DNA of 64,000 nt from an uncultured bacterium (GCA_964387845.1 CAYLXA010000003.1:1-64000); one strand, 5' to 3'; numbered from the stretch's first letter, positions 3,001 through 60,739 are shown. Numbers and translations are program-made. The notes: generated from the sequence alone by a model not told the origin.

Positions 3001-5826
3001 TTTACGATGACTTTCCGGGATCAAAACGGAAATCCATATAACATCGGCGCTCAATATGAAGACACGTGCGTGATGTTCCGCGCAATCGGAAAATGGTTTA
3101 ACGACAGCCACTATGAGCCAATCGAGTGCGGCCTTGACGGAAACTATTATTATTGCGAAGACTTAAAAGCAACAGGGCCAGTTTATATTCGGTCCGAAAT
3201 TCCCGGCGGTCCGGACAGCATTATGACGGAACCAAAATGGCTTAGCTCAAATAAATTAAAAGCTTATGTTCCTAATGTTGATTTTTCCAAAGCGAGCTGT
3301 TCAAATCCACAAGATTCTTATGACGTGCAGGCTTACCATTTTGCGGTAACGACCGATTGCGAAGCGTACAAAAACGGCCCAATCGCGGAATTAGGCACTT
3401 ATCGCGTCGACCGCGATCCGATGCAGACATTAAACGGATTCTACGCCAATAAAATCTCGATTGATAAAATTTATATCGGCGGTTATCCGACCACTGCAAA
3501 CGGCGGAGCTGGCGAGCCTTTCTACCTCGACAATCCAAACGCCGATCAGCACATGCAGCCGTTTACAACCGCCAGCCCTGCTTATTCTGCTTACTTAAAA
3601 ACAACACCGTCCGTTGATCAATTGTTGGATTACGCAGCTTACCGAAGAGGATGGACGCAGTGTCTCGGTATGGGATGCGGATATGGCGTTCATTATGGCG
3701 GCGGAGAATATTCTGGCGCCTTTTCTCCAAAAGGAAGCCCGGCGGTTTTTGAAGTCTTAACCGGCACTCATTTCTTAGGGCCTACACCGTTTAATTTTGA
3801 TCATCCGAACCAGTGCGGTGCCAACTTTCCTGTTACACAGTTCAACACAGGCTGCGCTCCCGTAAAATGTGATGCCGGCTGGAAATACGATGAAAATTCA
3901 GGCTACGGAAATGAGGGCTGTTTTTATAATGCAATTATCCAAGATTCATACTCATGTCCTGTCGCATTCAATCCATACGTTAACGGAATAACGGTGGGAA
4001 TGCAGCAGCCGGTTTATGCGCCCGGTCAGCTTTCAGCAACCGAGCGGGAAAATCTTGCATTCGACTGGGATGGCAGCGTAGATGTTTATGAAGATATTTG
4101 GGTTATGCATGACGTATTAGGTTATTCAAAATTTGTCAGTCATCATGAAAATTGCTCGGAATATACTCAGGTCAGAATTAAAAATGAATGGTATGTCAAT
4201 GACCCATTCTTTAATCACTCGCTGTGTGAGGGCAGTCTAACCTGCGCCGGAACGCCAAATCCTCCCGCCTGTTACATTCTTGATACTGACTCAGGCAATA
4301 ATGGTTGCAATCCTGCAACCGGGACATGGATTTATAAACCTGGGGACAACGGCACTGCATGCAATGACGGCCTTTCATGCACAACGGGAGATGTGTGTGA
4401 TACTGGTGTTTGCCGCGGAGTTTCCAACTGTGATGACGGAAATCCCATGACATCGGACTCTTGCAATCCAAGTACAGGATTGTGTGAATCAACCGATCAC
4501 TGTGTCGAACAAAATACGGAATGCCGTGTTTCTACCGGGCAGTGCGGCGCTGACGGCCAATGTGTTTTTGAGAATTTGCCGGACGGAACTTCATGCAATG
4601 ATCAGAACGCCTGCACAAGTGCAAGCACATGCCAAGCCGGTGCATGTGTTTCAACTATCCCGCCTGATATGATCTGCAATGACGGCTTTACTTGCACTAT
4701 TGATACTTGCGATCCATTGATCGGATGCATTCAGATTCCGGATAATACTCAATGCACATTTCAGGGCAATCAATGCAAAACATTTATATGCGACCCTTAT
4801 TACTCAAGCCCGAACGGCTTTGAATATCCCAATCCTATAACAGGCTGTGTTGAGGGAGAGCGTCCTCCAGTTGCGCCGGCACCAGGCGCGGAATGCACCA
4901 ACCCAAGCAGCTATCCGGAGCAAGGCGACATGTGCGCGGCTGGTGAAGCATGTAGTGCAAGTTGTCAATGTGATTCGCTTTGCGGAAACGGCGTGTGGGA
5001 TCATCAAGCCGGCGAACTGTGCGATCCGACGGTCCCGGCTGGTAGCCCCGGTCATTATTACAACCCAATCGGAGACGATATCCGAATTTGTCAAAGTGAT
5101 TGCATGCCATGCGACAGTTGTGGCAACGGAACCGTGACAGCCGTTCTTGGAGAAGAATGCGAAATAGACCCTACGGCAGACGCGATGGACATTTGTGGAG
5201 ACCCGACTTCGGTAGGTCCGTCAACGCGAGGGGAATGCCGGTATCAATGCGCCAATGGCTGGCAAGATGGTATTTTGCAGGAAACGCCTGATGAGGTACC
5301 GTGCAACCCGGCCACTTTTTTATGTCCCGATGGAATCACAGAGTGTCATCCCGAATTTGCTCCCTGCCCTGTCCCGCCGGGCGAAACGTGTGATCCGCTA
5401 ACATCAGACGGCAGCAATGAAACTATTTGTGGAGAATCAACTCCCGGCGTTATCAGTCAAGGGTGCAGTCTTTATGATCCGTTTGGATCAGGCCATTATT
5501 ATTCCAGCTGCCGATGCACATCCGTAAAAATTATTCCGCAAGGGCCGACATTGGAAGACCGCGCATGTGATCTTGGCGTTACCTCGATTGACCCTTCTAT
5601 GTGGCTTGCTCCAGCGCAAACAGATCAATGCAAATTTGGATGTGTTGAAGTTTATGCCGCTCAAGGATGCCGCGCATCAACACCCCAAAATCCGTGTACG
5701 TGTTACGGGATCACAGAATGGCAAGAATATTTTCCCGAATTAGTTCCTATGGGTGGCGGCACGTTTTACCGGGTCATCAGCACTTCGGCCTGCATGGCTT
5801 CAGGAGAACCAATACCCGGAGAATAA
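1..5826 (+). CDS. Giant secreted Cys-rich repeat protein (adhesin-like), 5'-truncated at the window edge. It has more than 40 Cys-rich repeats of the form CxDGNxCNGxExC...GCQxGTPL, two PKD/Ig-like inserts (VVDAGxD...TDDGxP...SGPGNV), a unique central domain of about 420 aa, and C-terminal CGNG...GEECD repeats of the Myxococcus cysteine-rich repeat type.
   Basis: The ORF is open to position 1 in frame and there is no signal peptide at the apparent start, so the 5' end lies outside the window. The repeat pattern is highly periodic in the translation. Stop codon TAA at 5824-5826. Confidence 0.85.
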   Translation, partial: NSVTYQLKNIGGRVLYWEASEPSVDWYTVSPSSGTLQRDEQVTVTVAFSQDANLLPVGSHTDQVIFTNTASGYTVASELDTPVQSTQMRDVSLEINQACDDGNACNGAETCGAGGGCQAGTPLTCDDNNVCNGIESCDSVNGCQSGTPLSCDDGQFCNGAETCDQTEGCTPGTDPCPGQNCDDMNDQCISNNEPPVVDAGLDQTIQLPNATMLDGIVTDDGLPEPSEITTLWLKYSGPGNVMFSEDYSTDTSVSFSIDGVYVLRLYASDREAEIFDDVQITVLPECTSAADCNDGNACTEDICTARSVCHDGQPNCTPTPSRCENRPRPSGFSCSDGLFCNGAETCNANQVCQPGTPPNCSGLNDQCNTGICNETTDQCVTNPVANGTICDDGNVCTLMERCLDGACQSDMMAPGCIPCDEDSDCNDNNACDGLELCLAGRCQNGIPLNCDDGNACTADSCHPTDGCMHTPIPDCMSCETDIDCNDGNVCTSDSCSGGICTHGNLPQGTACSDGTFCNGAETCNGAGVCVPGSAPDCEDMDPCTNDSCNSSTDSCVHDAIPDCQSCMSPEECDDGNPCTDENCLTPVSGSLGTCMYFDAEDGRICDSDNDVCDGTDTCQAGQCAPGDPLDCDDGDACTADSCNQTGGCIHTPIPDCISCQTNAQCDDSNPCTSDICAPEGSCSNEPVANGTSCADSNLCNGAEICQAGVCEPGTPLSCNDGNVCNGAETCNPVSGCQAGTPLSCNDGNVCNGTESCDPALGCQAGTPLTCDDGNVCNGTESCDAALGCQAGTPLTCDDGNICNGTETCNTTTGCQTGTPLICNDGLFCNGLESCSPALGCQAGSSPCPSDDGLFCNGNEVCDETIDQCQSTGNPCPPGETCDEPTDQCLSANNAPPVVNAGSDASIPISGTMNLNGSATDDGFPNPPATLITTWTKQSGPGNVTFGNENAPQTTATFSAMGNYVLRLTADDSALQAFDEVTIRVTPNVSISPGQSYHRKGFTMTFRDQNGNPYNIGAQYEDTCVMFRAIGKWFNDSHYEPIECGLDGNYYYCEDLKATGPVYIRSEIPGGPDSIMTEPKWLSSNKLKAYVPNVDFSKASCSNPQDSYDVQAYHFAVTTDCEAYKNGPIAELGTYRVDRDPMQTLNGFYANKISIDKIYIGGYPTTANGGAGEPFYLDNPNADQHMQPFTTASPAYSAYLKTTPSVDQLLDYAAYRRGWTQCLGMGCGYGVHYGGGEYSGAFSPKGSPAVFEVLTGTHFLGPTPFNFDHPNQCGANFPVTQFNTGCAPVKCDAGWKYDENSGYGNEGCFYNAIIQDSYSCPVAFNPYVNGITVGMQQPVYAPGQLSATERENLAFDWDGSVDVYEDIWVMHDVLGYSKFVSHHENCSEYTQVRIKNEWYVNDPFFNHSLCEGSLTCAGTPNPPACYILDTDSGNNGCNPATGTWIYKPGDNGTACNDGLSCTTGDVCDTGVCRGVSNCDDGNPMTSDSCNPSTGLCESTDHCVEQNTECRVSTGQCGADGQCVFENLPDGTSCNDQNACTSASTCQAGACVSTIPPDMICNDGFTCTIDTCDPLIGCIQIPDNTQCTFQGNQCKTFICDPYYSSPNGFEYPNPITGCVEGERPPVAPAPGAECTNPSSYPEQGDMCAAGEACSASCQCDSLCGNGVWDHQAGELCDPTVPAGSPGHYYNPIGDDIRICQSDCMPCDSCGNGTVTAVLGEECEIDPTADAMDICGDPTSVGPSTRGECRYQCANGWQDGILQETPDEVPCNPATFLCPDGITECHPEFAPCPVPPGETCDPLTSDGSNETICGESTPGVISQGCSLYDPFGSGHYYSSCRCTSVKIIPQGPTLEDRACDLGVTSIDPSMWLAPAQTDQCKFGCVEVYAAQGCRASTPQNPCTCYGITEWQEYFPELVPMGGGTFYRVISTSACMASGEPIPGE

Positions 5827-6105: not shown

Positions 6106-6186
6106 GAACGTCGAACTTAGAACCTCGAACTTCGAACATCTGAGAATATTTTTACGAGGTTCGACATTCGATGTTCGATGTCCGAA
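6106..6186. repeat. Intergenic inverted-repeat element, family A. The left arm is tandem (n)TCGAAC(n) units, the loop is 16 nt, and the right arm is tandem GTTCGA units.
   Basis: Arms 6106-6139 and 6156-6186 are read directly. The same architecture and core recur at 12139-12213 and 12631-12716. Confidence 0.7.
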
Positions 6187-6187
6187 T

Positions 6188-6565
6188 TTATTCTTTTCCT
6201 TTCATGCAGAGACCGGCGATCATGGCTTTCTCGCGTGATTTAATCCGGTTGACCAAATAAGTCATGGGATCCACCGGATTTTCCGGCATGAGTTTCCAGG
6301 TTTCCTGAATCTGAATATGGCGCGCGAGGACTTTCCGGAAAGTGTCATTTTCATCCATCGAAATCACAAGCTGCTTACGCAGGCGAATGAGCGTATTTGC
6401 ATTTTTAGGACAGCCTTCTTTATTTTTGAGGAGATCGATTTTATAAATCAAAACTTCAATGGCGGCGGAATTCCGGCGGATTTGGCAGCGGATCACTTTT
6501 TCCTGCCACTCAGTCAAAAGGCCGTTCGGGTCAATGACTTTGAGAAACTTCGGGTTTTTCTTCAT
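6188..6565 (-). CDS. Hypothetical protein (125 aa)
   Basis: ORF immediately downstream of, and translationally coupled to, the PilZ gene. No recognisable motif. Confidence 0.5.
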   Translation of the reverse strand: MKKNPKFLKVIDPNGLLTEWQEKVIRCQIRRNSAAIEVLIYKIDLLKNKEGCPKNANTLIRLRKQLVISMDENDTFRKVLARHIQIQETWKLMPENPVDPMTYLVNRIKSREKAMIAGLCMKGKE

Positions 6566-10961: not shown

Positions 10962-10979
10962 GTAAATCTCCTTGTCTAT

Positions 10980-11068
10980 GCTTCAAGCTTCAAGCTTCAG
11001 GCTTCAAGATTAAAGAATTGTGCCGCTTTAAGCTTGCGGCATGCAGCTTGTAGCTGCTTAACTTGCGA
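10980..11068. repeat. Intergenic inverted-repeat element, family B. The left arm is tandem GCTTCAAG/CAAGCnn heptamers, the loop is ~17 nt, and the right arm is tandem AAGCTTGnnGC units.
   Basis: Read directly. The same family occurs at 32806-32848/33218-33263 and 60664-60737. Confidence 0.7.
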
Positions 11069-12120: not shown

Positions 12121-12138
12121 GACTCCATTTTAAAGACG

Positions 12139-12213
12139 GACTTCGAACATCGAACCTAGAACATCATTTTCAGTATTGACCTACGTTCGAAGTTCCAGGT
12201 TCGAGGTTCGATA
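12139..12213. repeat. Inverted-repeat element, family A (TCGAAC heptamer arms), copy 2
   Basis: Arms 12139-12165 and 12183-12213 are read directly. Confidence 0.7.
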
Positions 12214-12234: not shown

Positions 12235-12624
12235 ATGAATGAAATTCGCCTCTTGCAATTCCTTATTTGTAAAGAATTTCGCGAAGAAGGTCAAGATGCT
12301 TATTGCGCGGGGTTTGTGCGCAGCAATCTCTATGTTCCCGAGTTTCCATTTTACCTGACCGACCTGCATGCTGTCACCTGCTGGCAGAAAGACGGGCGGT
12401 TTCACAAAGAAGTGATCGAATACGCCACCGATTACGGCGAATCGGTCAAAAGCCCGCATATGGACATTGAGCCGGCCAAAGGGAGTGTAATTTTCCGCTG
12501 GCACGCGCATCAATTTCCGACTGATTTCGCGATTGAGCGGCCGACCACTCTGACGGTTCGCGTGATTCTCGACTGGGAAGTCAAATTTGAATCACAGCTC
12601 ATGATTGAGAAACGACCGGCATAA
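12235..12624 (+). CDS. Hypothetical protein (129 aa) bracketed by two family-A elements
   Basis: A TATAAT at 12222-12227 lies only 7 nt before the ATG, suggesting a leaderless transcript. No recognisable domain. Confidence 0.4.
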   Translation: MNEIRLLQFLICKEFREEGQDAYCAGFVRSNLYVPEFPFYLTDLHAVTCWQKDGRFHKEVIEYATDYGESVKSPHMDIEPAKGSVIFRWHAHQFPTDFAIERPTTLTVRVILDWEVKFESQLMIEKRPA

Positions 12625-12630
12625 TTACGA

Positions 12631-12716
12631 GCGAACATCGAACTTCGGACATCGAACATCGTATCAATTATTGGTTCAATTCTCGATGTTCGAGGTTCTA
12701 TGTTTGAAGTCCGATA
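12631..12716. repeat. Inverted-repeat element, family A, copy 3
   Basis: Arms 12631-12661 (CGAACATCGAACTTCGGACATCGAACATC) and 12683-12716 are read directly. Confidence 0.7.
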
Positions 12717-24547: not shown

Positions 24548-25576
24548 ATGCGTGCGGTTATTTTCAAAGAACACGGCGGGCTTGAAAAATTAATTTATAC
24601 GGAAGTGCCGCGCCCAAAACCGGGGCCGCATGAAATTTTGATTAAAGTCAAAGCTTGTGCGCTCAACTACCTTGATATTTGGACACGGCTCGGGATTCCG
24701 GGGCTTCAGATTTCAATGCCGCATATTTCAGGGTGTGATATCGCCGGTGAAATCGCGGAGGTCGGCGCACACGTAAAAAATTTCAAAATCGGTAAACGGG
24801 CCGTTATTGCTCCGGGATTTACACCGCCAAACGATCCCCTTAAAAATACCGAATGGGATTCGCTTTCGGATCATTATAAAATTCTCGGCTTTCAAGTAGA
24901 CGGCGGCTATGCCGAATACGTCAAAGTCCCCGCCGAAAATGTATTCCCCGTTTCGAACCGCTTAAGTTTTGAAGAATGGGCGGCGATCCCTCTTGTTTCG
25001 CTAACTGTGTGGCACATGCTGGTAACGCGCGCTCAGCTTAAGAAAAACGAAACCGTTCTGATTCATGCGGCAGGAAGCGGCGTCGGAAGTGCTGCAATTC
25101 AACTGGCAAAGCATCTCGGTGCAAAAATCATTACGACTGTCGGAAATGACCAGAAAAAAACACGTGCCATTGAAATCGGTGCCAATTGGGTGATTAATTA
25201 CAACAAAACCGATTTTGCCAAAGAAGTCCGTGGAATTACCAAAAATAAAGGCGTCGATGTCGTTCTGGAACATATTGGGCCCGATACTTTCACGAAAAGT
25301 CTTGTCTGTCTTGCCAAAAAAGGGCGCCTCGTGACTTGCGGTGTGACGAGCGGCCCGAGCGTGCAGCTGGATTTGCGTTTTCTCTTCAGCCGCCAATTTT
25401 CGATTATGGGCTGCTATATGGGAGGCCTGAAAGAATTTAAGGAAGTTTTGAAACTGGTAGAAGCCGGAAAATTGAAACCTACTATTGATAAAATCTTTCC
25501 GCTCAAAGAAGCCCGCCGCGCTCAGGAGCGCATGCTTTCCCGCCAGAATTTCGGAAAGATTGTTCTCGTTCCGTAG
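24548..25576 (+). CDS. Zn-dependent alcohol dehydrogenase / quinone oxidoreductase (MDR superfamily)
   Basis: AAGSGVGSAAIQLAK Rossmann motif and a GroES-like N-domain. Confidence 0.85.
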   Translation: MRAVIFKEHGGLEKLIYTEVPRPKPGPHEILIKVKACALNYLDIWTRLGIPGLQISMPHISGCDIAGEIAEVGAHVKNFKIGKRAVIAPGFTPPNDPLKNTEWDSLSDHYKILGFQVDGGYAEYVKVPAENVFPVSNRLSFEEWAAIPLVSLTVWHMLVTRAQLKKNETVLIHAAGSGVGSAAIQLAKHLGAKIITTVGNDQKKTRAIEIGANWVINYNKTDFAKEVRGITKNKGVDVVLEHIGPDTFTKSLVCLAKKGRLVTCGVTSGPSVQLDLRFLFSRQFSIMGCYMGGLKEFKEVLKLVEAGKLKPTIDKIFPLKEARRAQERMLSRQNFGKIVLVP

Positions 25577-25668
25577 CGTCTAGCGGATAGCGCATAGCGT
25601 TTAGGAACGAGTGGTTTTTGAATGCTTTTCTATTCGCTATACGCTAAACGCTACCCGCTAAAAGCGAA
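25574..25668. repeat. Inverted-repeat element, family C. The left arm is TAGCGnn heptamers, the loop is ~25 nt, and the right arm is nnCGCTA heptamers. It lies between convergent genes.
   Basis: Read directly. A related arm is present at the window end (63966-64000). Confidence 0.65.
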
Positions 25669-30311: not shown

Positions 30312-30352
30312 TTGATATATTCCAAAAAAATGCCCGGCAGATACTTTGCCGG
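30312..30352. terminator. Bidirectional intrinsic terminator AAAAAAATGCCCGGCA-GATACTT-TGCCGGGCATTTTTTT, downstream of the pilin gene
   Basis: A 10-bp GC stem flanked by A- and T-runs. Confidence 0.75.
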
Positions 30353-30383
30353 GCATTTTTTTAAATAAAATAGAACTTAAAGT

Positions 30384-30857
30384 TTATTGACCTTTAAGCA
30401 AAACGTTCACGTCATACTGCTGAGTGGCAGCATAACAACCGCCGCCAGTATAAGAACCATCAACTGTATTGAGAGTGATGGTATTACCCGCACCATTGCA
30501 AACAGCCGGTGTTCCTGCAGCAGAACCATTACGTGTAGCAACCACTAATGGCGCAGCGCCAGACGCAAAATTCCAGTTTGCCGTATTCGGGCTTCCCGCT
30601 AATCCTAAAGTAGACCATATACCTGAATTTGCAACATCTGCCCAAGCTGCAGCAGTTTGACCGCCCATCTGATATCTAGCTTGCAATGTCCGGCCTAAAA
30701 TACCAAGCGTGTTACCGGCTTCGGCGACGCGTGCTTTTTCGGGTTGCGAAACGAGACGCGGTAACACAAGTGCGGCGATAATACCGAGAATCACGATCAC
30801 GATCAACAATTCAACGAGCGTGAATCCCTTCTTATTTTTTCTTAATTTATTTAGCAT
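30384..30857 (-). CDS. pilA: Type IV pilin (major pilin PilA-like)
   Basis: Class III leader MLNKLRKNKKG followed by FTLVELLIVIVILGIIAA. Start re-placed at 30857, with a GGAGG Shine-Dalgarno. Two C-terminal Cys residues. Confidence 0.8.
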   Translation of the reverse strand: MLNKLRKNKKGFTLVELLIVIVILGIIAALVLPRLVSQPEKARVAEAGNTLGILGRTLQARYQMGGQTAAAWADVANSGIWSTLGLAGSPNTANWNFASGAAPLVVATRNGSAAGTPAVCNGAGNTITLNTVDGSYTGGGCYAATQQYDVNVLLKGQ

Positions 30858-30944
30858 GTTTAATTCCTCCTTGTAATCCCCGTAAACCACGGGGCAAACC
30901 TCACGCGAAATTCGCGTTAAGGTGCTTATTTATTAAGCCAGTTT

Positions 30945-31400
30945 TCAGATAGCAGATGTCAGAAAACAGAAGTCAGACATAAAATTTTTTCCAACTTTTA
31001 ATGAGCGAATAAAGCATTGCATTGACTTCATCATATTTTGCATCCAATTTTTCGTGGACGGATTTTTCGATATAGCCACAATCAAGCGAGAAATCCAACC
31101 AACCTCTTGTCTCTTCGCTTGAACCAAAAGCATCGTTCAAATGCCGAATAAACAATTGTTCGTACTTTCTTTTTGCATACCCTTCTCGGATATTGATAGC
31201 TACCGATCTAGAGGATCTTCTGATTTGGTCAGTTAAAGAGTAGGTTTCTGGTTTGGGAAACTTTTTTGTGATTTCGAAAACGTCCAATGCAAGATTATAA
31301 GCTATGTTATAGACCTTTAAATCTTTGACAATTTTTATCACACGCTTAGTTCCTAAACTTTAACCTTCTGATTTCTGACTTCAGTCCTCCGACTTCTGTA
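30945..31400. mobile_element. IVS-like inverted-repeat element of about 456 bp carrying a four-helix-bundle gene. Arms are CAGAAnn/TTCTGAn heptamer arrays at 30945-30979 and 31365-31400.
   Basis: Arms read directly. The ORF sits in the loop. Confidence 0.6.
30973..31341 (-). CDS. Four-helix-bundle protein (23S rRNA intervening-sequence protein / Avd-like family)
   Basis: N-terminus YNIAYNLALDVFEITKKFPK...QIRRSSRSVAINIREGYAKR is typical of the family. GTG start with an AGGAA Shine-Dalgarno. Confidence 0.8.
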   Translation of the reverse strand: MIKIVKDLKVYNIAYNLALDVFEITKKFPKPETYSLTDQIRRSSRSVAINIREGYAKRKYEQLFIRHLNDAFGSSEETRGWLDFSLDCGYIEKSVHEKLDAKYDEVNAMLYSLIKSWKKFYV

Positions 31401-31526
31401 ATCATATTAGAAAGAGCTAAATTAAGTATCGCCTCGGTTAATTATCAAGTCAACAGCAGAAAACCTACCCACTTGGCTTACTTTAACGGCTTAATAAGTC
31501 CGATTCTTGATTGTGAGTTTTCAGTC

Positions 31527-32804
31527 TTAACCTCCGCCTGTAGAGATTGCAATAAGCGGTAGAAACATCGATATAACCAGTGTTCCAACTACAAGACCCA
31601 TAAATAAAATGATCATCGGCTCAATCGATACTGAAATCCGTTGAATGGTGGCATCAACCCGCTCTTCATAAAAATTAGAAATGACATCTAAAAACTTTTC
31701 AAGCGCGCCACTTTCCTCTCCGACAGAAATCAGCTGAGTTACAAATACGGGAAATACATTATATTTAGCAAGCGGCGCCGCCAAGGAATGGCCTTGCTTG
31801 ACATCCTCCCGCGCGACCATGATCCGGTCTTCAATGACAGAATTTCCGACAAGCCGGGATGAGATTTCGAGCGCATGCAGAATCGAAATACCGGACTTGA
31901 CCATTGTCGAAAGACCTCGGCAAAACCTGACAATTGCGATTTCAAGCAAGAAATCTTTCATCAAAGGAATCTGTAACTTCATCATATCAAGAATTTTTTT
32001 GGAGGATTTGTTTCGAGACATGCTGGTATAAATTACTACGGTCACGATAATCATTAATAAAATAAAAAGAGAATTGTGCTGCATGAAACGGCTTGTATCA
32101 AGAACAAACTGAGTAATCTCTGGAAGTTTCCGGCCGCCGCCCATACTTTTAAATACTTGTTCAAAAGTTGGGATTACTTTGATCATAAATATTGCGATGG
32201 CGCCGACAGAAAATGAAAGCAGAATAGCAGGGTAAATCATTGCTGATGTTACTTTGCGTTTGAACTTTTCGCTTGTTTCCTGATATTTATAAATCTCCTC
32301 TAAAACATCCGGCAAAGTGCCGCTCGCTTCGCCGGCTTCAATCAATCCAAGCCAAAAAGGTGGAAATACTTTTGGATAATCCGCTAAAGAATTGCTCAAG
32401 CTAAATCCTTGGCTGATTTTATCGATCGTGGAATGAATGACGCGTTTTAAGAGGCCTGCTTTAAGCCCCTGTTCAATAATAGAAAGTGATTTTAAGATCG
32501 GGACACCGGCCCGCAAAAGCGCTATCAGCTGGATAAAAAAAGAAGTAAGATCGCTGCCTTTAACACTTTCGAAAAGCGTAATCTCGCCAAACGGTTTTTT
32601 TGTACCCTCGGCCTTTTTTTGCTTGCTGCTTGAAGCGCCGAAACCAAAAAGGCCTTTTGCCTTTCCGCCTTCTTCAACGGAAAGGATCAAATAACCTTCA
32701 TTCTGAAGCTGCTGGACAATTTGATCGGGCCGTTCGGCCTCTCGGACAAACTGCTCCAACTTTGCATCTGCTTCACGCTTTTTAGCACGGATGGTGAATT
32801 TCAT
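31527..32804 (-). CDS. pilC: Type IV pilus assembly inner-membrane platform protein PilC (GspF family)
   Basis: Duplicated GspF domains and three TM segments. Start re-placed at the ATG at 32804, because the annotated N-terminal 9 codons are a translated repeat arm. Confidence 0.85.
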   Translation of the reverse strand: MKFTIRAKKREADAKLEQFVREAERPDQIVQQLQNEGYLILSVEEGGKAKGLFGFGASSSKQKKAEGTKKPFGEITLFESVKGSDLTSFFIQLIALLRAGVPILKSLSIIEQGLKAGLLKRVIHSTIDKISQGFSLSNSLADYPKVFPPFWLGLIEAGEASGTLPDVLEEIYKYQETSEKFKRKVTSAMIYPAILLSFSVGAIAIFMIKVIPTFEQVFKSMGGGRKLPEITQFVLDTSRFMQHNSLFILLMIIVTVVIYTSMSRNKSSKKILDMMKLQIPLMKDFLLEIAIVRFCRGLSTMVKSGISILHALEISSRLVGNSVIEDRIMVAREDVKQGHSLAAPLAKYNVFPVFVTQLISVGEESGALEKFLDVISNFYEERVDATIQRISVSIEPMIILFMGLVVGTLVISMFLPLIAISTGGG

Positions 32805-32805
32805 G

Positions 32806-33263
32806 TTCAAGCTCCAAGCTACAAGCTTCAAGCCACAGGCTTCAAGCCTTTAACAACAGTTTCTCTAAAGCGATATAATTCCTTGCCTAGCTTTTCATAT
32901 TTGCTCATTACTGCATTAAAAACAGATTCATCTTTTAAAGATTGAGTATCAAACAATAATTGCAAATGTTCTTTGGTTTCATCGCACGATGCGATTGCAT
33001 ATGTCAAATATCGTATAAACTCTTGTTGATATTGTTTTCGACCAAATCCTTCGACAATTGCCGCCGGAATTGATTTTGCTGATCGCCTTATTTGGCTACC
33101 TTCTTCATACATTTCTATCTTTGGCAATTTTTGAATCGTCATACTATGAACTTCAACTGCTAATTCATGAGCCAATTTGTATACCCTTAAATCCTTATAA
33201 CTTTGCTTTATCATTTACGCTTTAAGCTTTAAGCCTGAAGCTTGCAGCTTGTAGCCTGAAACC
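32806..33263. mobile_element. IVS-like inverted-repeat element of about 458 bp carrying a four-helix-bundle gene. Arms are family-B CAAGCnn heptamers at 32806-32848 and 33218-33263.
   Basis: Arms read directly. The element exactly fills the pilB-pilC junction. Confidence 0.6.
32828..33214 (-). CDS. Four-helix-bundle protein (23S rRNA IVS protein / Avd-like family), second copy
   Basis: N-terminus YKLAHELAVEVHSMTIQKLPK...QIRRSAKSIPAAIVEGFGRK. The last 7 codons and the stop lie inside the repeat arm. Confidence 0.8.
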   Translation of the reverse strand: MIKQSYKDLRVYKLAHELAVEVHSMTIQKLPKIEMYEEGSQIRRSAKSIPAAIVEGFGRKQYQQEFIRYLTYAIASCDETKEHLQLLFDTQSLKDESVFNAVMSKYEKLGKELYRFRETVVKGLKPVA

Positions 33264-33264: not shown

Positions 33265-35448
33265 CTATTCATACGCCACACTCAAAACTTCCTCTAATGT
33301 TGTAACACCCTCTTCAACTTTCCGGACACCGCTGTCGAAAAGAGTTGCTATGCCGGCTTTTTTCTCAGCTTCCCTAAGCAGCTCGATCGGCTCATTGCGG
33401 GCAATCACGCTGCGCATTTCTTCCGTAATCGGCATGATTTCATAAATCGCAACACGGCCCCAGTAACCGATGTCGCGGCAATCTTTGCATCCTTTGGCTT
33501 TGTATATTTTTCGGACATTCAGCCGGAAATCCTTCATTTCTTTATCAGACGCTTCATAGGGCTCTTTACAGCTTGGGCACAATTTACGGACTAGGCGCTG
33601 CGCACCGATTAGAATCAAACTCGAAGCCACTAGATAAGGCTTCACACCAATATCAATGAGCCGCGTGACGGCCGTAGGCGCGTCATTCGTGTGCAACGTG
33701 CTCAAGACCAAATGACCCGTGAGTGCCGCACGCACACAAACATCGGCTGTTTCTTCATCGCGGACTTCGCCGACGAGGATAATGTCGGGATCTTGACGCA
33801 AAAATGCGCGCAAACCGGTTGCAAACGTAAGGCCAATGTCGGGCTTTACCTGCACCTGACCGACACCCTGCATTTGAAATTCGACCGGGTCTTCGATGGT
33901 TAAAATATTCGTTTCGGTAGATTTGACGAAATCAATTGCAGCATAAAGCGTCGTCGTTTTTCCGCTCCCGGTCGGGCCCGTGATATAAATAAGGCCATAC
34001 GGTTTTTCAACTGCATCCTGAAAAGCTTTAAGCTGTTTTTCATCAAACCCCAGGTCTTTGAGGCCTTTTAAGCCAGCACCTTTATCCAAAAGACGCATCA
34101 CGACCCGCTCTCCGAACACCACCGGAACCGTTGAAACACGGACGTCGATATTGCGGCTTTTGTAGGTAATTGAAAACGAGCCGTCCTGCGGGATTCTTTT
34201 TTCGGCGATATCCAACTTAGATAAAATTTTGACGCGTGAGACAACTGCCAAATGCATCTGTTTCGGGGGCGGCGGAAGTTCATACAAAATTCCATCAAGC
34301 CGGTAACGGACAATAAGGCGGTCTTCAAACGGTTCAATGTGAATATCGCTCGCACGGTCTTCGATGGCTTTTTTGAGAAGCAAATCGACAAATCGAATAA
34401 CGGGCGGCTGGTCGGCCTCAGCCATGCGTTCGGCAAGCATGACGCGGCCTTCTGTAACACCGCGGGCAGCTGACTTAGTTTCGGCCTCCATTTGCTTGCC
34501 GGTCACGACTTCTTCTAGCTGAATATCGCCGTAGAAGCTTTGGAGCTTTGCGCGCAAATCATTCGGCGTTGCGAGTACCGGAATAATTTCAAGGCCTGTT
34601 ATTTTTTTAAGATCGTCTAAAAGCAAAAGATCAAAAGGTTTCGCAAACGCGACTGTCAAATTTTTTCCGGACCTGAAAAGCGGAAGCGCAAACCTCTCCT
34701 TTGCAATTTTCTCCGGGAAAATGTCTTTTAACCTTTGGTCAGCCCGGGGATTAAGCTGATCACCCACCATAACCGGCAAATTAAGCTGTTGCGACAAAGC
34801 TACCATAATATCCGTCTCTCGCCGGACAAAACGCATGGTGACTAAGATTTCACCGAGCGGGGCACCTGTCTTTTTTTGATCTGCGAGCGCCTGTTGAAGC
34901 TGATCTTCTGAAATCAAACCCTGGCGGACTAAAATCTCGCCGAGCTTGAGCTTGCGCATGCTGGTTTTAACATCGGCAGACGCGTTTGGCTTATCACTTT
35001 CCTTAAATTCGGTTTTATAAAATGCGTCGATTTTAGCTTCTAAATCCTGTTTGTGCGCAAGCACAGGATCAATATCAAGACTGGTTGCTTTTTTGATATC
35101 GGAAAGAACGTCCGGCGTAAAATTATATGAGAAAGCAACGGTTAGTTTTCCTTCGGTTTTTGAAATGGGCAGCGCTAAATATTTCCGCGCCACAGCTTCG
35201 GGAAAAGCGTACTTGAGTTTCTGATCAGCGTGAGGGATCAGCTGATCACCGATTAAAATCTGAAGTTTATAAATTTGTGAGACAGCAACTACCAGGTCTG
35301 TTTCGCGGCGGATAAAATTGTTCTTGAGGAGAATATCGCCAATCGGCGCCTTACTGTCCTTTTGCTCTGACAGTGCCCGAGACAACTGCTCGGCACTCAT
35401 CAGGCCTTGGCTTACTAAAACATCGCCAAGTGAAGATGGGTCACTCAT
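33265..35448 (-). CDS. pilB: Type IV pilus assembly ATPase PilB (GspE family) with two tandem N-terminal MshEN/T2SSE_N domains
   Basis: Walker A GPTGSGKT, Asp box, His box, and a CxxC...CxxC tetracysteine motif. 727 aa. Confidence 0.9.
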   Translation of the reverse strand: MSDPSSLGDVLVSQGLMSAEQLSRALSEQKDSKAPIGDILLKNNFIRRETDLVVAVSQIYKLQILIGDQLIPHADQKLKYAFPEAVARKYLALPISKTEGKLTVAFSYNFTPDVLSDIKKATSLDIDPVLAHKQDLEAKIDAFYKTEFKESDKPNASADVKTSMRKLKLGEILVRQGLISEDQLQQALADQKKTGAPLGEILVTMRFVRRETDIMVALSQQLNLPVMVGDQLNPRADQRLKDIFPEKIAKERFALPLFRSGKNLTVAFAKPFDLLLLDDLKKITGLEIIPVLATPNDLRAKLQSFYGDIQLEEVVTGKQMEAETKSAARGVTEGRVMLAERMAEADQPPVIRFVDLLLKKAIEDRASDIHIEPFEDRLIVRYRLDGILYELPPPPKQMHLAVVSRVKILSKLDIAEKRIPQDGSFSITYKSRNIDVRVSTVPVVFGERVVMRLLDKGAGLKGLKDLGFDEKQLKAFQDAVEKPYGLIYITGPTGSGKTTTLYAAIDFVKSTETNILTIEDPVEFQMQGVGQVQVKPDIGLTFATGLRAFLRQDPDIILVGEVRDEETADVCVRAALTGHLVLSTLHTNDAPTAVTRLIDIGVKPYLVASSLILIGAQRLVRKLCPSCKEPYEASDKEMKDFRLNVRKIYKAKGCKDCRDIGYWGRVAIYEIMPITEEMRSVIARNEPIELLREAEKKAGIATLFDSGVRKVEEGVTTLEEVLSVAYE

Positions 35449-35453: not shown

Positions 35454-37472
35454 CTATGCGGGCTTCACCCGCAGAGGCGATGCGGCAGCTGAACCTTGAG
35501 GCGGAATTCCTTGATTTGCAGGCGCAGCCAAGGGTGTTGGGTTTTCCTCTGTTTTTGCAACCGCCTCTTTGGAAAGACCGGTGATCAAAGACGGTTGATC
35601 AGTTTCTTCTGAGTTTTCAGGCTGATTAGTTAGCGTGTTTGAATCAGACGAGGTCGTTTCTTTTTCTATTGATTCAGCAGCTACCGGTTCTCCGGACCCT
35701 TCCGCTGTGATTCCGATCGGCCAAGAATTGGTCGGTGCCGAAACGGTATTGAGCTTCTGGCTTTCAAGTTGAAGCGCCTGTTCTATTACTTTATTACGCT
35801 CGTCAAAAAACTGATCAACTTCCTCGCTGGCATCCTGGCCTTTGCTTCGATATCTTTCTTTAAACCAGGGTTTATCCCAAAACTTCCAAAACTCACTTGT
35901 TTCCTCTTCCATAGAAGTCATTTTGTCCGGAATAGACCGCGCTTGAACGATCCTGGAGTCTTCTCGCTTCACAATAACCGGCCTTAAGAAAATCATGAGT
36001 TCCCGGTCTAGTTTGTTGGTGGTCCATTTAGTAAAAAATGCACCAAAAAACGGTATATCACCCAAAATGGGGACCTTTCGGCGGATTTTAACCTCATCAC
36101 GCTGTAAGAGACCGCTGATTGAAATGACTTTACCGCTTTCAACCGAAAGCGTAGTACGAGTAGCGCGGATTCTGGGGTCGCGGAAATCCGTGTTGAATGT
36201 GGATGTATCTGCTGTAGCGTAACGGGGTTCTAAAAGTAATGTGATGTAATTTTCATCGTTGATGAGCGGTGTAACTTTCAACGTGACACCTGTTTCCGAC
36301 CGCTCGGCTGTTTCGGTGGTTAAATTTTCACCCGCTCCGCCGCCCGCCGAAACCTGGCTATTAACACCGATTACTTCATTGACCGTGATTTTAATAAAAG
36401 CCGGCTCGTTGTCTAAAACGAGAACTCTTGGCTTCGCGAGAACTTTTGTCCGAGAATCAGTTTGAAGGGCTCGTAAAGTGGCGGTCATTTGGCTGAAATC
36501 ATAACTACCGAAGGACAGCCCTGTTCCTTCTTCAAGTAAATCATGATTATCGGGAATTAAATCTCCAAATTGATTTATTGATGGTATATTAAAAACACCT
36601 CTCGCACCAGAAATTGTACCCAGAGAATTGTTTTCCCCAGACCCGTTCCCCCAATCAGTGCCTAAGTATTTGTCAAAATCGGTCGCTGTTTCCAAAATGA
36701 TTGCTTCGATCAAAACTTGATCAAGCGGATGATCAAGAATGGTTACGACTTTTTCAATTTGCTCAAGACGGTCCGGGGTGTCGGTCACAATCAGGCTGTT
36801 GGTTCTGTCATCAACGGTTACTTTGCCGCGCGGGCTCAACAAATCTTCAATTGTATCTTTAATTTCACTCGGCTCACCACCTGATACAGTTGCCGATGTT
36901 CCAATGCTTGAAGAGCCTACGCCGACACCAGAGCCTGTGGAAGACCCTGAAGAGCCGCCTGCCGAGCTTGATGTTGATTCGCTCAAGCTAAGTACTTTAA
37001 CTTTTGCCGCTCTTACGTATTTTAATTTAAAAACGCGTGTCTCAAGCGGAGCTAATGCATCTTCACCTGTGATACCGCGGATTAAAATAATGTTGCTTGC
37101 GCCCACTTTCTGCATAACCAGGCTATTGCCTTTGATGATTGCCTCCAAAGCATCATCAAACGAAACATTGTCCAAGAATAAACTGATTTTCTTTTTTGCG
37201 GCGTCTTCTGAAGTAACAAAATTAGCGCCCGAAAGCGAAGAAAGGACTTTGAGAACCTCGCTCAAACCAACATCCGAAAACTCGATTGACAGCTTTCCTT
37301 CTTCAGATTCCTTGATATTGGCAACCGGCGCTTCGGCTGTCTCGGTGCTGTAGGCAGATTGATCGTAATCATATTCGGCAGCATTGGCAGGCATCCCAAA
37401 AGAAAAGATGAGACAAACAATAAGAAGCTGGGGTGTGATTATATGATTAAAATGTATCTTAGATAGGTGCAT
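35454..37472 (-). CDS. pilQ: Type IV pilus secretin PilQ
   Basis: Secretin C-domain (VPILGDIPFFGAFF...LMIFLRPVIV) followed by an S/G-rich low-complexity region. Confidence 0.8.
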   Translation of the reverse strand: MHLSKIHFNHIITPQLLIVCLIFSFGMPANAAEYDYDQSAYSTETAEAPVANIKESEEGKLSIEFSDVGLSEVLKVLSSLSGANFVTSEDAAKKKISLFLDNVSFDDALEAIIKGNSLVMQKVGASNIILIRGITGEDALAPLETRVFKLKYVRAAKVKVLSLSESTSSSAGGSSGSSTGSGVGVGSSSIGTSATVSGGEPSEIKDTIEDLLSPRGKVTVDDRTNSLIVTDTPDRLEQIEKVVTILDHPLDQVLIEAIILETATDFDKYLGTDWGNGSGENNSLGTISGARGVFNIPSINQFGDLIPDNHDLLEEGTGLSFGSYDFSQMTATLRALQTDSRTKVLAKPRVLVLDNEPAFIKITVNEVIGVNSQVSAGGGAGENLTTETAERSETGVTLKVTPLINDENYITLLLEPRYATADTSTFNTDFRDPRIRATRTTLSVESGKVISISGLLQRDEVKIRRKVPILGDIPFFGAFFTKWTTNKLDRELMIFLRPVIVKREDSRIVQARSIPDKMTSMEEETSEFWKFWDKPWFKERYRSKGQDASEEVDQFFDERNKVIEQALQLESQKLNTVSAPTNSWPIGITAEGSGEPVAAESIEKETTSSDSNTLTNQPENSEETDQPSLITGLSKEAVAKTEENPTPLAAPANQGIPPQGSAAASPLRVKPA

Positions 37473-57250: not shown

Positions 57251-58827
57251 TCGGCGTGCTTTTTAGCATCCAGCACCTTCCACACACCGCTCATTTTGCT
57301 ATTCATCTCTTCAAAAACACTCTTTTCGTTCGCATACTGCCATTCAAAGCCAAATTTTCCGGCCAAAATAGAGAGAATTTCCAAATCCTTTCTCGCATTT
57401 CCGATTGGTGTAAGCGCTTGTGAAAAGTGCTGCGTTTTTCCCTCAAAATTTGTGAAAGTTCCGCTCAATTCCGCATAAGCAGCGCTCGGCAGCACATAAT
57501 CACAAGCTTCAGAGGTTAAGCTGGTGTTCATCCCATGAAAAATGGTGAGTTCGATTTTCTCAAAAATCTCGGAAATCTTGGGGTCTTTCACGAGCGTCAG
57601 AAAATCCTGGCCGAATAAGTAAAGTGCTTTGAGCTTTCCCTGCTTCGCAAGCTCAACCACTTTCTCGATTTTCGCACCTGATTCTTTAAAGCCCAGAAGT
57701 TCGGCGCCTTTTCGGTTTGGATTTTTATCGGCGCGAATCAGAAAATCGTCTTCGTAGCCTTCTTTGTTTGGCGATAACAAATAAACATGAGGAAGTTTTA
57801 ATTCTTCGGAAAACAATTTTTTCGCCAAATATAACGATTCGTTCGAAAGTTGAGGCGACAATAGAACCGCTGCAGCACGCGGATCTTCTTTTACGGCATC
57901 AATCCACTTTGTTGAAACTTCAACCAAAGCATCATCCCAATCCAAAACTTCGGGTACTTTGTTGATCCTGCGCGACGGCTCCAAAATACGGTCTTGATCG
58001 ATCCACTTGTAACCATAGCGGCCTTCATCACAAATCCACCACTGGTTGATTTCCGGGTTGTAGCGCGGCTTCAGGCGCATGAGACGTTCGCCGTGTCCGT
58101 GATGTTTGCGTTCGGTGTTGACTTCCATCGAAATCGAACAGCCGCGTGAACAGCCGCTGCAAATTGAATTGGCTTTTCTCAAATACCAAACCCGCACTTT
58201 AAACCTGAAATCGCGGTCTGTGAGCGCGCCGACCGGACAAATGTCCACAACATTTCCCGAATACTTGTTATCAAGCTCTTTTCCCGGATAAAGGCCGATT
58301 TCCGCATGATCACCGCGGTTAAAGATTCCAAAGTCGTTTGTTTTCGTAATCTCATCCGAATAACGCACGCAGCGCGAACACAAAATACAGCGTTCGGAAT
58401 CTAACATCACGTTGGGCCCGATCGGAACCGCTTTTTTCTTTTTTACCTTTGATTCGTTCAGCTTCGAATCATAAAGCCCATGCTTCATGTAATAATCTTG
58501 AAGCCCGCACTCACCCGCCTGATCGCACACGGGACAATCCAAAGGATGATTAACAAGCAGAAATTCTAACACGTGCTCGCGCATGAGCTTGACTTTCTCG
58601 GTGCTGGTTTTCACCACCATGCCGTCTGTGCATTCAATGTGGCAGGAAATTTGAAGTTTCGGGGTTTTCTCGATTTCAACTAAACACATGCGGCAATTGC
58701 CCGCAATGCTCAAACCAGGATGATAGCAATAATGAGGGATGTCGATGCCAAGCTGCTTGGCGGCCTGGATGACGCGCGTTCCCTTTTCGACTGTGACTTC
58801 TTTTCCGTCAATGGTTAATGTTGGCAT
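57226..58827 (-). CDS. nuoG: NADH-quinone oxidoreductase subunit G (short form, 533 aa)
   Basis: N-terminal 2Fe-2S and 4Fe-4S Cys clusters. Confidence 0.85.
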   Translation of the reverse strand: MPTLTIDGKEVTVEKGTRVIQAAKQLGIDIPHYCYHPGLSIAGNCRMCLVEIEKTPKLQISCHIECTDGMVVKTSTEKVKLMREHVLEFLLVNHPLDCPVCDQAGECGLQDYYMKHGLYDSKLNESKVKKKKAVPIGPNVMLDSERCILCSRCVRYSDEITKTNDFGIFNRGDHAEIGLYPGKELDNKYSGNVVDICPVGALTDRDFRFKVRVWYLRKANSICSGCSRGCSISMEVNTERKHHGHGERLMRLKPRYNPEINQWWICDEGRYGYKWIDQDRILEPSRRINKVPEVLDWDDALVEVSTKWIDAVKEDPRAAAVLLSPQLSNESLYLAKKLFSEELKLPHVYLLSPNKEGYEDDFLIRADKNPNRKGAELLGFKESGAKIEKVVELAKQGKLKALYLFGQDFLTLVKDPKISEIFEKIELTIFHGMNTSLTSEACDYVLPSAAYAELSGTFTNFEGKTQHFSQALTPIGNARKDLEILSILAGKFGFEWQYANEKSVFEEMNSKMSGVWKVLDAKKHAECETTMCL

Positions 58828-60118
58828 ATTCGGACTTTTCTAAATCGCATTTTTTTTCTTTGATATGGTACTCAAATTCCGAACGAAATTTTTTCAAATA
58901 ACTCAAAAGCGGCATTTGAGCGCCGTCTGCAAGCGCGCAGATCGTCGTGCCGCCCATAAAACTCCCGATATCGATCACATTCTCAACATCTGAAGACCGC
59001 CCGTTCCCGTCTAGCACGCGTTTGAAAATCCTGGAAATCCATCCTGTCCCTTCGCGGCACGGTGAACACTGGCCGCAAGATTCGTGCGCGTAAAAATTCA
59101 TAGTGACCGAAAGTGCTTTGACCATGCAGACCGTTTCATCAAACACAACCACGCCGCCTGAGCCGCCCATGGAACCGATTGCTCTCAGAGAATCAAAATC
59201 CATTTTCACGTCAATTTCAGATGGCGCAAGAATTGAAGCGGACAATCCGCCTGGCACAACGGCCTTCAGTTTGTGGCCTTTGCGGACACCGCCGGCATCT
59301 TCAATCAGCTGCCGGAGCGGAATTCCGAGCGGGCGCTCGTAAACACCCGGACGCTCAACGTGGCCGCTCACGCTAAAAAGACGCATGCCGCCGTTCTTAT
59401 CGGAGCCGACATTCGCGAACCACTCGGGGCCTTTTTTCAAAATGAACGGCAAATAAGAAAGTGTTTCGACGTTATTAATTACGGTCGGACAATTAAAAAG
59501 CCCGATCACGGCAGGAAAAGGCGGTTTTAAACGCGGCAATCCTTTTTTTCCTTCCAAAGATTCTAAAAGCCCCGTTTCTTCGCCGCAAATGTAGGCGCCG
59601 GCGCCTCGGTGAACCACTACGTCCAAATCAAACCCGGTTCCAAAAATATTTTTCCCGAGGTAATTTTTAGAAACCGCTTCTTCAACTGCTTTCACCATTC
59701 GTTCATATGAAATTTGATATTCACCGCGGATATAAATGTAAGCTTTGTGAATACCGACCGCATATGCGCAAAGCAAAATTCCTTCAAGCAAAAGATGCGG
59801 CGCAAAATTCATAATATATTTATCTTTGAATGTGCCCGGCTCGCCTTCATCGGCGTTGACCACCAAATAAATCGGCTTTCCGGTATTGCGCGGCACAAAA
59901 CTCCATTTCATGCCGCAGCCAAAACCGGCGCCGCCGAGCCCGCGAAGGTTTGATTTTTTCACGATTGCTTCGACTTCCTCCGGCTTTACTTCTTTCAACA
60001 CACGTTTCGCCGTTTCCCAGCCGCCGTTTTCAAGATAAACCGGCAGTGTGTGAGAATTTTGTATGTCGAAGAACTTTGAAATTAATTTTTCCATTATTGC
60101 CTTAAATTCAAATCTCAA
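58808..60118 (-). CDS. nuoF: NADH-quinone oxidoreductase subunit F
   Basis: GLGGAGFGCGMKW FMN site and a C-terminal 4Fe-4S motif. Confidence 0.9.
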   Translation of the reverse strand: MRFEFKAIMEKLISKFFDIQNSHTLPVYLENGGWETAKRVLKEVKPEEVEAIVKKSNLRGLGGAGFGCGMKWSFVPRNTGKPIYLVVNADEGEPGTFKDKYIMNFAPHLLLEGILLCAYAVGIHKAYIYIRGEYQISYERMVKAVEEAVSKNYLGKNIFGTGFDLDVVVHRGAGAYICGEETGLLESLEGKKGLPRLKPPFPAVIGLFNCPTVINNVETLSYLPFILKKGPEWFANVGSDKNGGMRLFSVSGHVERPGVYERPLGIPLRQLIEDAGGVRKGHKLKAVVPGGLSASILAPSEIDVKMDFDSLRAIGSMGGSGGVVVFDETVCMVKALSVTMNFYAHESCGQCSPCREGTGWISRIFKRVLDGNGRSSDVENVIDIGSFMGGTTICALADGAQMPLLSYLKKFRSEFEYHIKEKKCDLEKSEYANINH

Positions 60119-60648: not shown

Positions 60649-60663
60649 CGCGATATATCCATT

Positions 60664-60737: not shown

Positions 60738-60739
60738 GT

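Follow-up and report, generated by a model that had tools for sequence, protein, structure and literature searches.

Intervening sequences (IVSs) of 23S rRNA are the closest described counterparts of the elements reported here. The IVS of Coxiella burnetii is 428-444 nt long and carries an S23p open reading frame (ORF) within a 28-bp terminal stem; three copies of GACAGAT and one of GACAGAA lie just ahead of the S23p start, the repeat number varies between strains, and RNase III cuts the stem at the first repeat (PMC4990558). Genes of the same protein family, 23S_rRNA_IVP, also occur inside cas operons, for example between cmr3 and cmr2 in Pleurocapsa (Zhang, Doak, Ye 2013; PMC3936711). In the homologous Avd protein of diversity-generating retroelements (DGRs), all five protomers of a pentamer grip an RNA stem-loop of 11 bp, whose flipped-out bases insert between them (bioRxiv 10.1101/2023.10.23.563531). 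We analyzed a 64,000-nt stretch of DNA from an uncultured bacterium (GCA_964387845.1 CAYLXA010000003.1:1-64000; hereafter the window), in which two four-helix-bundle (4HB) genes, encoding proteins of 122 and 128 aa (4HB1 and 4HB2), lie on either side of pilC in a type IV pilus gene cluster. Each gene sits within an inverted pair of heptamer arrays, forming element 1 (E1) and element 2 (E2). We consider it probable that E1 and E2 are promoter-less cassettes of the same kind as the ORF-bearing 23S rRNA IVSs, resident in transcripts.

The likeness to the Coxiella IVS extends to several features. Both kinds of element encode a PF05635 protein, enclose the ORF in a loop closed by a long terminal stem and are of similar size (~441-459 bp for E1 and E2), and both lie in sense orientation in a highly transcribed unit (PMC4990558). 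E1 also has GACAGAT/GACAGAA-type heptamers directly before its start codon, where E2 instead has a CAAGC unit. The differences concern location, the state of the gene, and cleavage. The IVSs of Coxiella, and also those of Leptospira, Xanthomonas and Brucella, occupy helix 45 of 23S rRNA, whereas E1 and E2 occupy a leader and a spacer of pilus mRNA; an Rfam scan found no family match and no rRNA in the window. The protein gene is decaying in Coxiella but under purifying selection here, and RNase III cleavage, demonstrated in Coxiella, would apply to E1 and E2 by analogy.

Repeat analysis and folding agree that each 4HB ORF is bracketed by inverted heptamer arrays. The arms of E1 are built from a CAGAAnn/nnTTCTG unit with 76-89% complementarity; on the sense strand the 5´ arm reads ACAGAAG TCGGAGG ACTGAAG TCAGAAA TCAGAAG and the 3´ arm TCTGACT TCTGTTT TCTGACA TCTGCTA TCTGAAA. 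E2 uses CAAGCnn/nnGCTTG, with 85% complementarity over 33 nt. When the transcribed (minus) strand was folded, as the preliminary description of the window had proposed, both stems closed round the ORF, with a minimum free energy of -120.6 kcal/mol (z = -2.6) for E1 and -132.4 kcal/mol (z = -2.9) for E2. The loop of E1 holds the AGGAA ribosome-binding site of the 4HB1 gene, and the 128-aa ORF ends inside the E2 3´ arm, which supplies its last six codons and its stop, as first noted. The 7-nt period is not due to chance: 61 segments of 21 nt had at least 17 self-matches at lag 7, and none did at any other lag from 4 to 12. E1 and E2 are indeed alike in size, a point stressed in the preliminary description, but this simply follows from a ~125-codon gene being joined to two arms of ~35-45 nt.

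Both ORFs belong to the 4HB family, with scores far over the cut-offs. PF05635 (23S_rRNA_IVP) matched 4HB1 with 114 bits and 4HB2 with 96 bits (cut-off 33.8), and TIGR02436 matched them with 109 and 92 bits (cut-off 24). Relatives of solved structure are PDB 2RLD and 2GSC, with five chains each (E 8e-9 and 6e-8). In the protein collection searched, 4HB1 is identical to P0001 and 4HB2 to P0121, and there are thousands of relatives, hundreds of them 66-80% identical to 4HB1. The closest relatives of 4HB1 come mostly from metagenome-assembled genomes (MAGs) of Omnitrophota, and also from Atribacteria and Planctomycetota. Taken with a 63% identical PilC from an Omnitrophica MAG, this suggests an Omnitrophota bacterium as the probable source of the window. 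The 4HB protein is under strong purifying selection: among 4HB1-type proteins the median identity is 72% and third-codon-position identity is 46%, 227 out of 300 random pairs are saturated for synonymous divergence, and omega, where measurable, is ~0.09. Given such selection, unlike that on the decaying Coxiella copy, it is uncertain whether the cassettes should be called selfish, as had been suggested.

Other readings of the two genes were considered. A role in defense is unsupported, as PADLOC models gave no match for 4HB1 or 4HB2, and so is carriage by phages, since a search of 2.9 million viral contigs turned up no relative of the 4HB1 or the 4HB2 type. An integron cassette was dropped for want of an attC-like single site and an integrase, and a toxin-antitoxin system for want of a partner gene.

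That E1 and E2 behave as insertions is seen by comparison with orthologous pil operons at graded distances, which were found by protein search and contig look-ups; a contig scan with PilC returned distant relatives only (≤32% identity) and no orthologous operons. In the nearest relative (L101; PilC and PilB both 89% identical), the pilB/pilC junction holds a PF05635 gene with TTAATGT/ACATTAA arms, whose product is 34% identical to 4HB2 over 76 residues. In L102/L103 (PilC 84%) the junction is empty and measures 17 nt. In L104/L105 (PilC 63%) it holds a third cassette with AACCAG/CTGGTT arms and a gene 38% identical to that of L101. Different cassettes have thus occupied the pilB/pilC spacer repeatedly, and a second filled and unfilled pair is provided by L097 and L110. 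None of the three relatives has E1, which is therefore specific to the lineage of the window. The empty site, the non-orthologous 4HB gene and the threefold absence of E1 uphold the proposal that these are insertions and not ancestral residents. Relatives carrying the same genes without repeats would have spoken for the latter; the opposite was seen, with sites either empty or differently filled. The E2 insert is an inverted repeat right to both of its ends (CAGGCTACAAGC ... GCTTGTAGCTTG); since 1-3 T residues leave the junction ambiguous, no target duplication can be called there. At the E1 boundary, native ...ACAG abuts the first unit.

The arrangement extends well beyond the window. We collected 80 metagenomic loci encoding 4HB1-type proteins, 74 of them non-redundant. 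At least three phased CAGA units were present upstream in 62 of the 70 loci with a complete upstream flank, and at least three phased TCTG units downstream in 66 of the 72 with a complete downstream flank. Arrays were found on both sides of the gene in 56 of 68 loci and on at least one side in 67, compared with a background density of 0.19 runs per kb elsewhere in these loci. E1 and 67 of 68 relatives carry the ACAGA heptamer unit of the Coxiella 23S IVS stem, which bears out the description of these elements as IVS-like. Arms have a median of 5 units (range 3 to 16), with the consensus (G/A)-A-C-A-G-A-n upstream and its complement downstream, and near-identical loci differ by whole heptamers (e.g. 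L064, L066 and L073). No rRNA was found by Rfam in 20 short related loci. Across ~90 related loci the cassette lies within ordinary operons, is gained and lost between relatives, and is not rRNA-specific.

The pairing between the arms is patterned. The best ungapped stem in 4HB1-type relatives has a median length of 33 nt, and when the arms are set in their best ungapped register, Watson-Crick pairing reaches 92-98% at the CAGA core, compared with only 53-75% at unit positions 1, 2 and 7. Across the 74 loci (e.g. L017, L023 and L025) the mismatch is periodic, with A.A in 26% of cells at unit position 2, because half of the downstream units read TCTGAC and not TCTGTC. The CAGA core has been kept across the same divergence that saturated synonymous sites, which points to selection on the arm sequence itself, beyond pairing.

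Different 4HB subfamilies carry different units. Loci of the 4HB2 type (L097, L098, L099, L110 and L111) have upstream units of the CA(A/G)G(C/A/T) type, matched by their complement downstream, and some of their gene calls run into the arrays, producing N-termini such as GYRLQAA x3 and MQVTGYRLQAAGYRLQAAGYRLQ, in which seven residues correspond to three heptamers. Members of other PF05635 subfamilies have TTAATGT (L101) and AACCAGn (L104). Further units are AACGCGT (second gene of L097), ACACGTn (a fragment in L098), TAAAAAG (L029) and CTAAAGT (second gene of L012). In plasmid copies from cultured Nostoc and Leptolyngbya the upstream arrays are rich in G and the downstream arrays in C, and some have period 8; Nostoc accounts for 21 of 44 PF05635 plasmid matches. 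In all cassettes the purine-rich arm is 5´ of the gene, and because this is always so, the gene was not dropped at random into a pre-existing hairpin. Gene and arms are one unit, with a fixed polarity and a heptamer core specific to the protein subfamily.

Cassettes are also oriented with their hosts. The nearest long ORF is co-directional with the 4HB1-type gene upstream in 56 of 57 cases, downstream in 58 of 60 and on both sides in 42 of 44, and the 4HB start follows the end of the upstream gene by a median of 54 nt. The hosts are diverse. In L012 one cassette lies between cdhC and cdhD of a carbon monoxide dehydrogenase/acetyl-CoA synthase (CODH/ACS) operon and a second after RACo; others are in sugar and lipid biosynthesis clusters (L097 and L110), in radical-SAM clusters (L098) or beside alr and ilvB (L111). 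The 23S_rRNA_IVP genes of cas operons resemble the pil cassettes in being PF05635 family genes inserted between operon genes, but they were read as CRISPR-associated, and neither flanking repeats nor mobility were described for them (PMC3936711). The cas location is probably one more operon spacer for these cassettes.

One plasmid locus departs from the inverted-arm, co-directional pattern. At positions 1486-1896 of L109 (a plasmid of Oscillatoria nigro-viridis PCC 7112), GAGTGGG/GAGGGG-type purine-rich arrays lie on both sides of the 4HB gene as direct, not inverted, repeats, and the neighboring genes are on the opposite strand.

In the window, the pil genes are all on the minus strand, in the order pilQ, pilB, the 128-aa ORF, pilC, the 122-aa ORF and the pilin gene along transcription (Table 1). 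E2 fills the pilB-pilC spacer, as initially described, with the qualification that the final ~14 nt of its 3´ "arm" (32805-32818, TTGGAGCTTGAAC ahead of the pilC ATG) represent the ribosome-binding region native to pilC. The empty site of L102 has this region too (TAA-cagTTTGGAGCATGAAC-ATG), and the fold pairs it at the foot of the E2 stem. In the database protein and in all orthologues, PilC begins at the ATG at 32804, so the 9-codon TTG extension is spurious, as first stated.

Table 1. Positions of the pilus genes, cassette parts and gene-less heptamer arrays in the window
Feature	Position	Strand	Basis or remark
pilQ secretin	35454-37472	-	
pilB, T2SSE ATPase with MshEN domains	33265-35448	-	
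E2 5´ arm, CA(A/G)GCnn heptamers	33214-33263	-	begins 2-6 nt past pilB stop
4HB2 gene, 128 aa, PF05635/TIGR02436	32828-33214	-	profile matches
E2 3´ arm, GC(T/C)TGnn heptamers	32805-32850	-	fold and repeat analysis
pilC (T2SSF), true start ATG at 32804	31527-32804	-	database protein P0241, 425 aa, 100%
pilA sigma-70-like promoter candidate, TTGACT-17-GATACT	31425-31453	-	consensus match and position
E1 5´ arm (transcription sense), five (n)ACAGAn-type heptamers	31365-31403	-	pairs with 30945-30980 in fold
4HB1 gene, 122 aa, PF05635/TIGR02436 four-helix-bundle (S23p / 23S-IVS protein family)	30973-31341	-	
E1 3´ arm, five nnTCTGn heptamers	30945-30980	-	
pilA 5´ leader, conserved	30858-30944	-	alignment with L101, L102, L104
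pilA-like type IV pilin, N_methyl motif	30384-30857	-	
CGAACnT-type hairpin	6106-6188	.	between convergent genes, z -2.8
Inverted CAAGC-type array pair	10972-11068	.	thioredoxin / FNR-like reductase spacer; weak fold, z -0.8
CGAACAT-type hairpin	12137-12213	.	upstream of 129-aa ORF, z -3.3
CGAACAT-type hairpin	12630-12715	.	downstream of 129-aa ORF, z -4.8
TAGCGnn-type hairpin	25572-25662	.	between convergent genes, z -5.2
TTCAAAT-type hairpin	60103-60170	.	nuoE/nuoF spacer, z -3.6
CAAGCnn/nnGCTTG hairpin	60663-60732	.	nuoD/nuoE spacer, -39.3 kcal/mol, z -5.3
CAGCGTA/TAGCGTT-type array	63966-63998	.	cut by window end

E1 is placed differently. The preliminary description had it exactly filling the pilC-pilA junction, between cistrons of one polycistron, and neither statement holds. 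On the pilC side ~123 nt separate the stop codon from the arm and include the TTGACT-17-GATACT site; on the pilA side a leader of ~87 nt (GGCTTAATAAATAAGCAC, with two small GC-rich hairpins and GGAGG) lies between E1 and the pilA ATG. The leader is kept in four genomes (L101 5640-5686, L102 3185-3263, L104 ~5465-5500, and the window), has no Rfam family match, and may be a cis-regulatory leader of the pilin gene. Promoter-like sites also follow pilC in the relatives, as TTGACA-17-CATAAT in L102 and L104 and as TTGATG-17-GATATAAT in L101. Because a positionally conserved promoter-like site precedes E1 and the conserved leader comes after it, we place E1 within the pilA 5´ untranslated region.

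Just past the pilA stop, at 30325-30365, there is a GC-rich hairpin between A-runs and T-runs (aaaaaaatgcccggcagatactttgccgggcattttttt). It looks like a bidirectional intrinsic terminator and would fit pilA as a separate transcription unit, and is missing from the output of the terminator scan. That scan found no site at the heptamer arms and a single site in the region, inside pilC.

E1 and E2 are not special to the pil operon, as eight more heptamer arrays, all lacking a gene, lie in intergenic spacers of the window. Six of the seven complete ones fold with z-scores of -2.8 to -5.3. The CAAGC unit of E2 recurs in two of them (10972-11068 and 60663-60732), and the arm at 10972-11068 closely resembles that of E2. 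Both spacers of nuoD-nuoE-nuoF (58808-62074, minus strand) hold hairpins, which indicates that core respiratory operons are punctuated by such structures. Extra arrays near 4HB1 cassettes in other genomes are mostly of the CAGA type (66 of 109, 61%). We infer that the gene-less arrays are counterparts of ORF-less IVSs, either derivatives or targets of the cassettes.

Two further observations concern repeats in the window. A 129-aa ORF (12235-12624, plus strand) with CGAACAT-type hairpins on both sides has no Pfam or PADLOC match, and 1.84 billion representative proteins yielded just two relatives, with 55% and 48% identity; cassettes of this kind may carry it as another cargo, or it may be a lineage-specific gene lying between two hairpins. 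A 78-nt tandem repeat at 2135-2474 (4.4 copies, 71% matches) encodes a 26-residue repeat inside a giant ORF (7-5826, plus strand, >1,939 aa) that runs off the window start.

Intergenic heptamers have been described before. Xanthomonas has inverted pairs of GGGAATC (PMC4692102) and Beggiatoaceae have direct repeats of TAACTGA (PMC4679880), intergenic heptamer repeats include GGGGA(T/C)T in Nostoc and the short tandemly repeated repetitive (STRR) sequences of Calothrix, and heptamers are the commonest long simple repeats in many bacteria, with copy numbers that vary between close relatives (PMC4692102, PMC4679880). These repeats are likewise tandem, intergenic and often in convergent pairs, and they occur in taxa rich in PF05635 genes. 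Unlike them, the arrays reported here bracket a gene, and their unit tracks the 4HB subfamily; neither PMC4692102 nor PMC4679880 mentions S23p or 4HB genes.

If E1 and E2 are IVS-type cassettes, they may work as follows. A cassette consists of one gene for a PF05635 protein, predicted to form pentamers, and two inverted arrays of about five heptamers. It sits in sense orientation in a presumably transcribed non-coding spacer, E2 between the pilB stop and the pilC ribosome-binding site and E1 in the pilA leader, and, probably having no promoter of its own, would rely on the host transcript for expression. The arms may pair in the RNA to form an imperfect stem of 25-45 bp, a putative substrate for RNase III by analogy with the Coxiella IVS and its GACAGAT repeats. 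Cleavage would release a 4HB mRNA, with its ribosome-binding site in the loop in the case of E1, and would split the RNA on either side, so that pilB parts from pilC and the pilA leader loses its 5´ end. The ribosome-binding site of pilC, at the base of the E2 stem, would likewise be freed. Because that site is paired in the fold, processing or melting of E2 would affect pilC translation. Segmentation of polycistronic mRNAs at RNase III sites is well known, and the novelty first claimed for it narrows to IVS-type 4HB cassettes as the source of the stem, for which we found no description.

Several points weigh against this reading. RNase III cleavage and co-transcription of the pil cassettes are argued from analogy, and the z-scores of the two single-sequence folds are modest. 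In a promoter scan, promoter-like sites were no commoner than in shuffled sequence, so the call of the pilA promoter rests on its conserved position in four genomes. In and around the cassettes we identified neither a target-site duplication nor a transposition enzyme, and therefore call them mobile on the basis of presence, absence and replacement only. The 80 metagenomic loci were picked by protein similarity, and their neighbors were called by a simple ORF rule. Finally, a wobble test in the arms was marginal (G.U 95 versus A.C 68, p = 0.04, 29 versus 19 loci), which leaves room for a role at the DNA level. Most arm mismatches are transversions such as A.A, and because of this a constraint at the DNA level, or from recognition by a protein, fits them equally well.

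Recognition by the protein could itself be the core of the system, a tentative alternative to which we give some weight. Here the 4HB pentamer would bind the heptamer stem of its own cassette, as RNA or DNA, together with gene-less hairpins of the same unit, in order to control processing, stability or translation or to recruit an enzyme, and RNase III would be secondary. The subfamily-specific core, conserved despite saturated synonymous sites, suggests as much, though linkage of gene and arms alone would also yield an association between subfamily and unit. Four invariant and three variable positions per unit, with the A.A mismatch at position 2 in about a quarter of cells, are unlike the outcome of selection by pairing alone. 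The prevalence of CAGA-type arrays among those near 4HB1 cassettes is also as expected. The match between a median of five units per arm and a pentameric protein is set against the variation in array length from 3 to 16 units. RNA stem-loop binding by the homologous Avd pentamer offers a lead (bioRxiv 10.1101/2023.10.23.563531), and by that analogy PF05635 proteins outside DGRs might bind as well. Such recognition would be compatible with the IVS-type reading and does not exclude it.

The comparison with Avd has two sides. The bAvd protein has a homologous four-helix-bundle fold and forms a basic pentameric barrel, and cassettes in L054 and L099 lie directly upstream of a true avd. On the other hand, 4HB1 falls below the thresholds of the DGR Avd models (PF22296 24.9, needs 40; NF033474 25.5, needs 80), 4HB2 has no match to either, and avd has not been described with heptamer-array arms. 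The neighbors of E1 and E2 are pilB, pilC, pilA and a tetratricopeptide repeat (TPR) protein, with no reverse transcriptase, nor any ORF of that size, and no template/variable repeats next to the elements. In L054 (266-622, 664-1011) the avd downstream of the IVS-type cassette scores 62 bits with bAvd. L099/L100 (3001-3375, 3529-3891, 4451-5953) has an IVS-type cassette upstream of avd, with matches to bAvd, RVT_1 and an Lcl_C target; in L099 an ACAGA-type heptamer array lies downstream of avd. L054 and L099 are unrelated contigs and have a 21-mer, TCACTGGGCGTTCATTCCGCC, in common after avd.

A bolder form of the recognition idea, which we regard as unlikely, is that each 4HB subfamily reads its own heptamer core, acts on its own cassette and acts in trans on gene-less hairpins such as those in the nuo, trx-FNR and CODH/ACS regions, with the periodic mismatches taken up between protomers as in the Avd-RNA complex. 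If this were true, the recognition system would add to intercistronic RNA processing and stability a layer that is coded in sequence and spans the genome. The protein-stem complex could then also recruit a reverse transcriptase for RNA-mediated spread, which would account for the strict sense orientation and for the two cassettes beside DGRs.

The cassettes might instead be mobile at the DNA level, the arrays serving as terminal inverted repeats or single-stranded DNA hairpins for a transposase or recombinase encoded elsewhere and the 4HB gene being carried as cargo or encoding a DNA-binding accessory. Orthologous junctions that are filled, empty or differently filled would be expected of such an element, as would an inverted repeat that, in E2, reaches both ends of the insert, gene-less hairpins resembling the E2 arm sequence, and heptamer copy numbers that differ among near-identical loci. 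We nevertheless think it improbable. A cut-and-paste element has no need of the near-absolute sense orientation, a clear target-site duplication is lacking, and the arms of different copies have a unit in common but no conserved terminal sequence. No transposase was found in or beside the cassettes, and 2.9 million viral contigs contained no 4HB1- or 4HB2-type relative. A similar contrast holds for repetitive extragenic palindromic sequences and bacterial interspersed mosaic elements (REP/BIME) and for miniature transposable elements with inverted repeats (MITEs). These are also short hairpin repeats between cistrons that are present or absent at orthologous sites. The arrays here differ in having a common unit core of 4-5 nt and a 7-nt period with no conserved sequence, in sometimes carrying a gene, which is then strictly in sense orientation, and in having no evident RAYT-type or other transposase.

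Lastly, the heptamers common in many bacteria and paired as inverted repeats in Xanthomonas (PMC4692102, PMC4679880), together with the eight gene-less arrays, two of them in the nuo operon, could suggest slippage-born arrays kept as terminators or REP-like stabilizers beside ordinary resident 4HB genes, but this is very unlikely given the single unit core and fixed polarity at 67 of 68 loci in unrelated contexts, the many 8-kb loci in which the flanking pair are the only two arrays, the empty site and non-orthologous replacement in close relatives, and hairpins that are not followed by T-runs, the lone site of the terminator scan being inside pilC.

Much of the groundwork for the IVS-type reading was already in place, including the PF05635 family and its wide occurrence, the RNase III processing of rRNA IVSs, the Coxiella heptamers, intergenic heptamers, and PF05635 genes in cas operons. 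In open-access papers and preprints we found no account of heptamer arrays flanking PF05635 genes outside rRNA, although earlier descriptions are possible. The open-access literature likewise yielded no subfamily heptamer code, no rule of sense orientation, no filled, empty and replaced sites, and no tie to gene-less hairpins in operons.

The nature and spread of rRNA IVSs and the role of the S23p protein have been questions since the early 1990s, and PF05635 proteins are annotated by the thousands without a function. On the reading that we favor, the rRNA IVS would be one habitat of a wider type of cassette that lives in transcribed operon spacers. The cassette would also be tied to the unexplained excess of intergenic heptamers in Xanthomonas, Nostoc/Calothrix and others. 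Should the stems be processed, the cassettes would constitute a mobile source of operon segmentation, shifting the relative expression of neighboring genes such as pilB, pilC and pilA.

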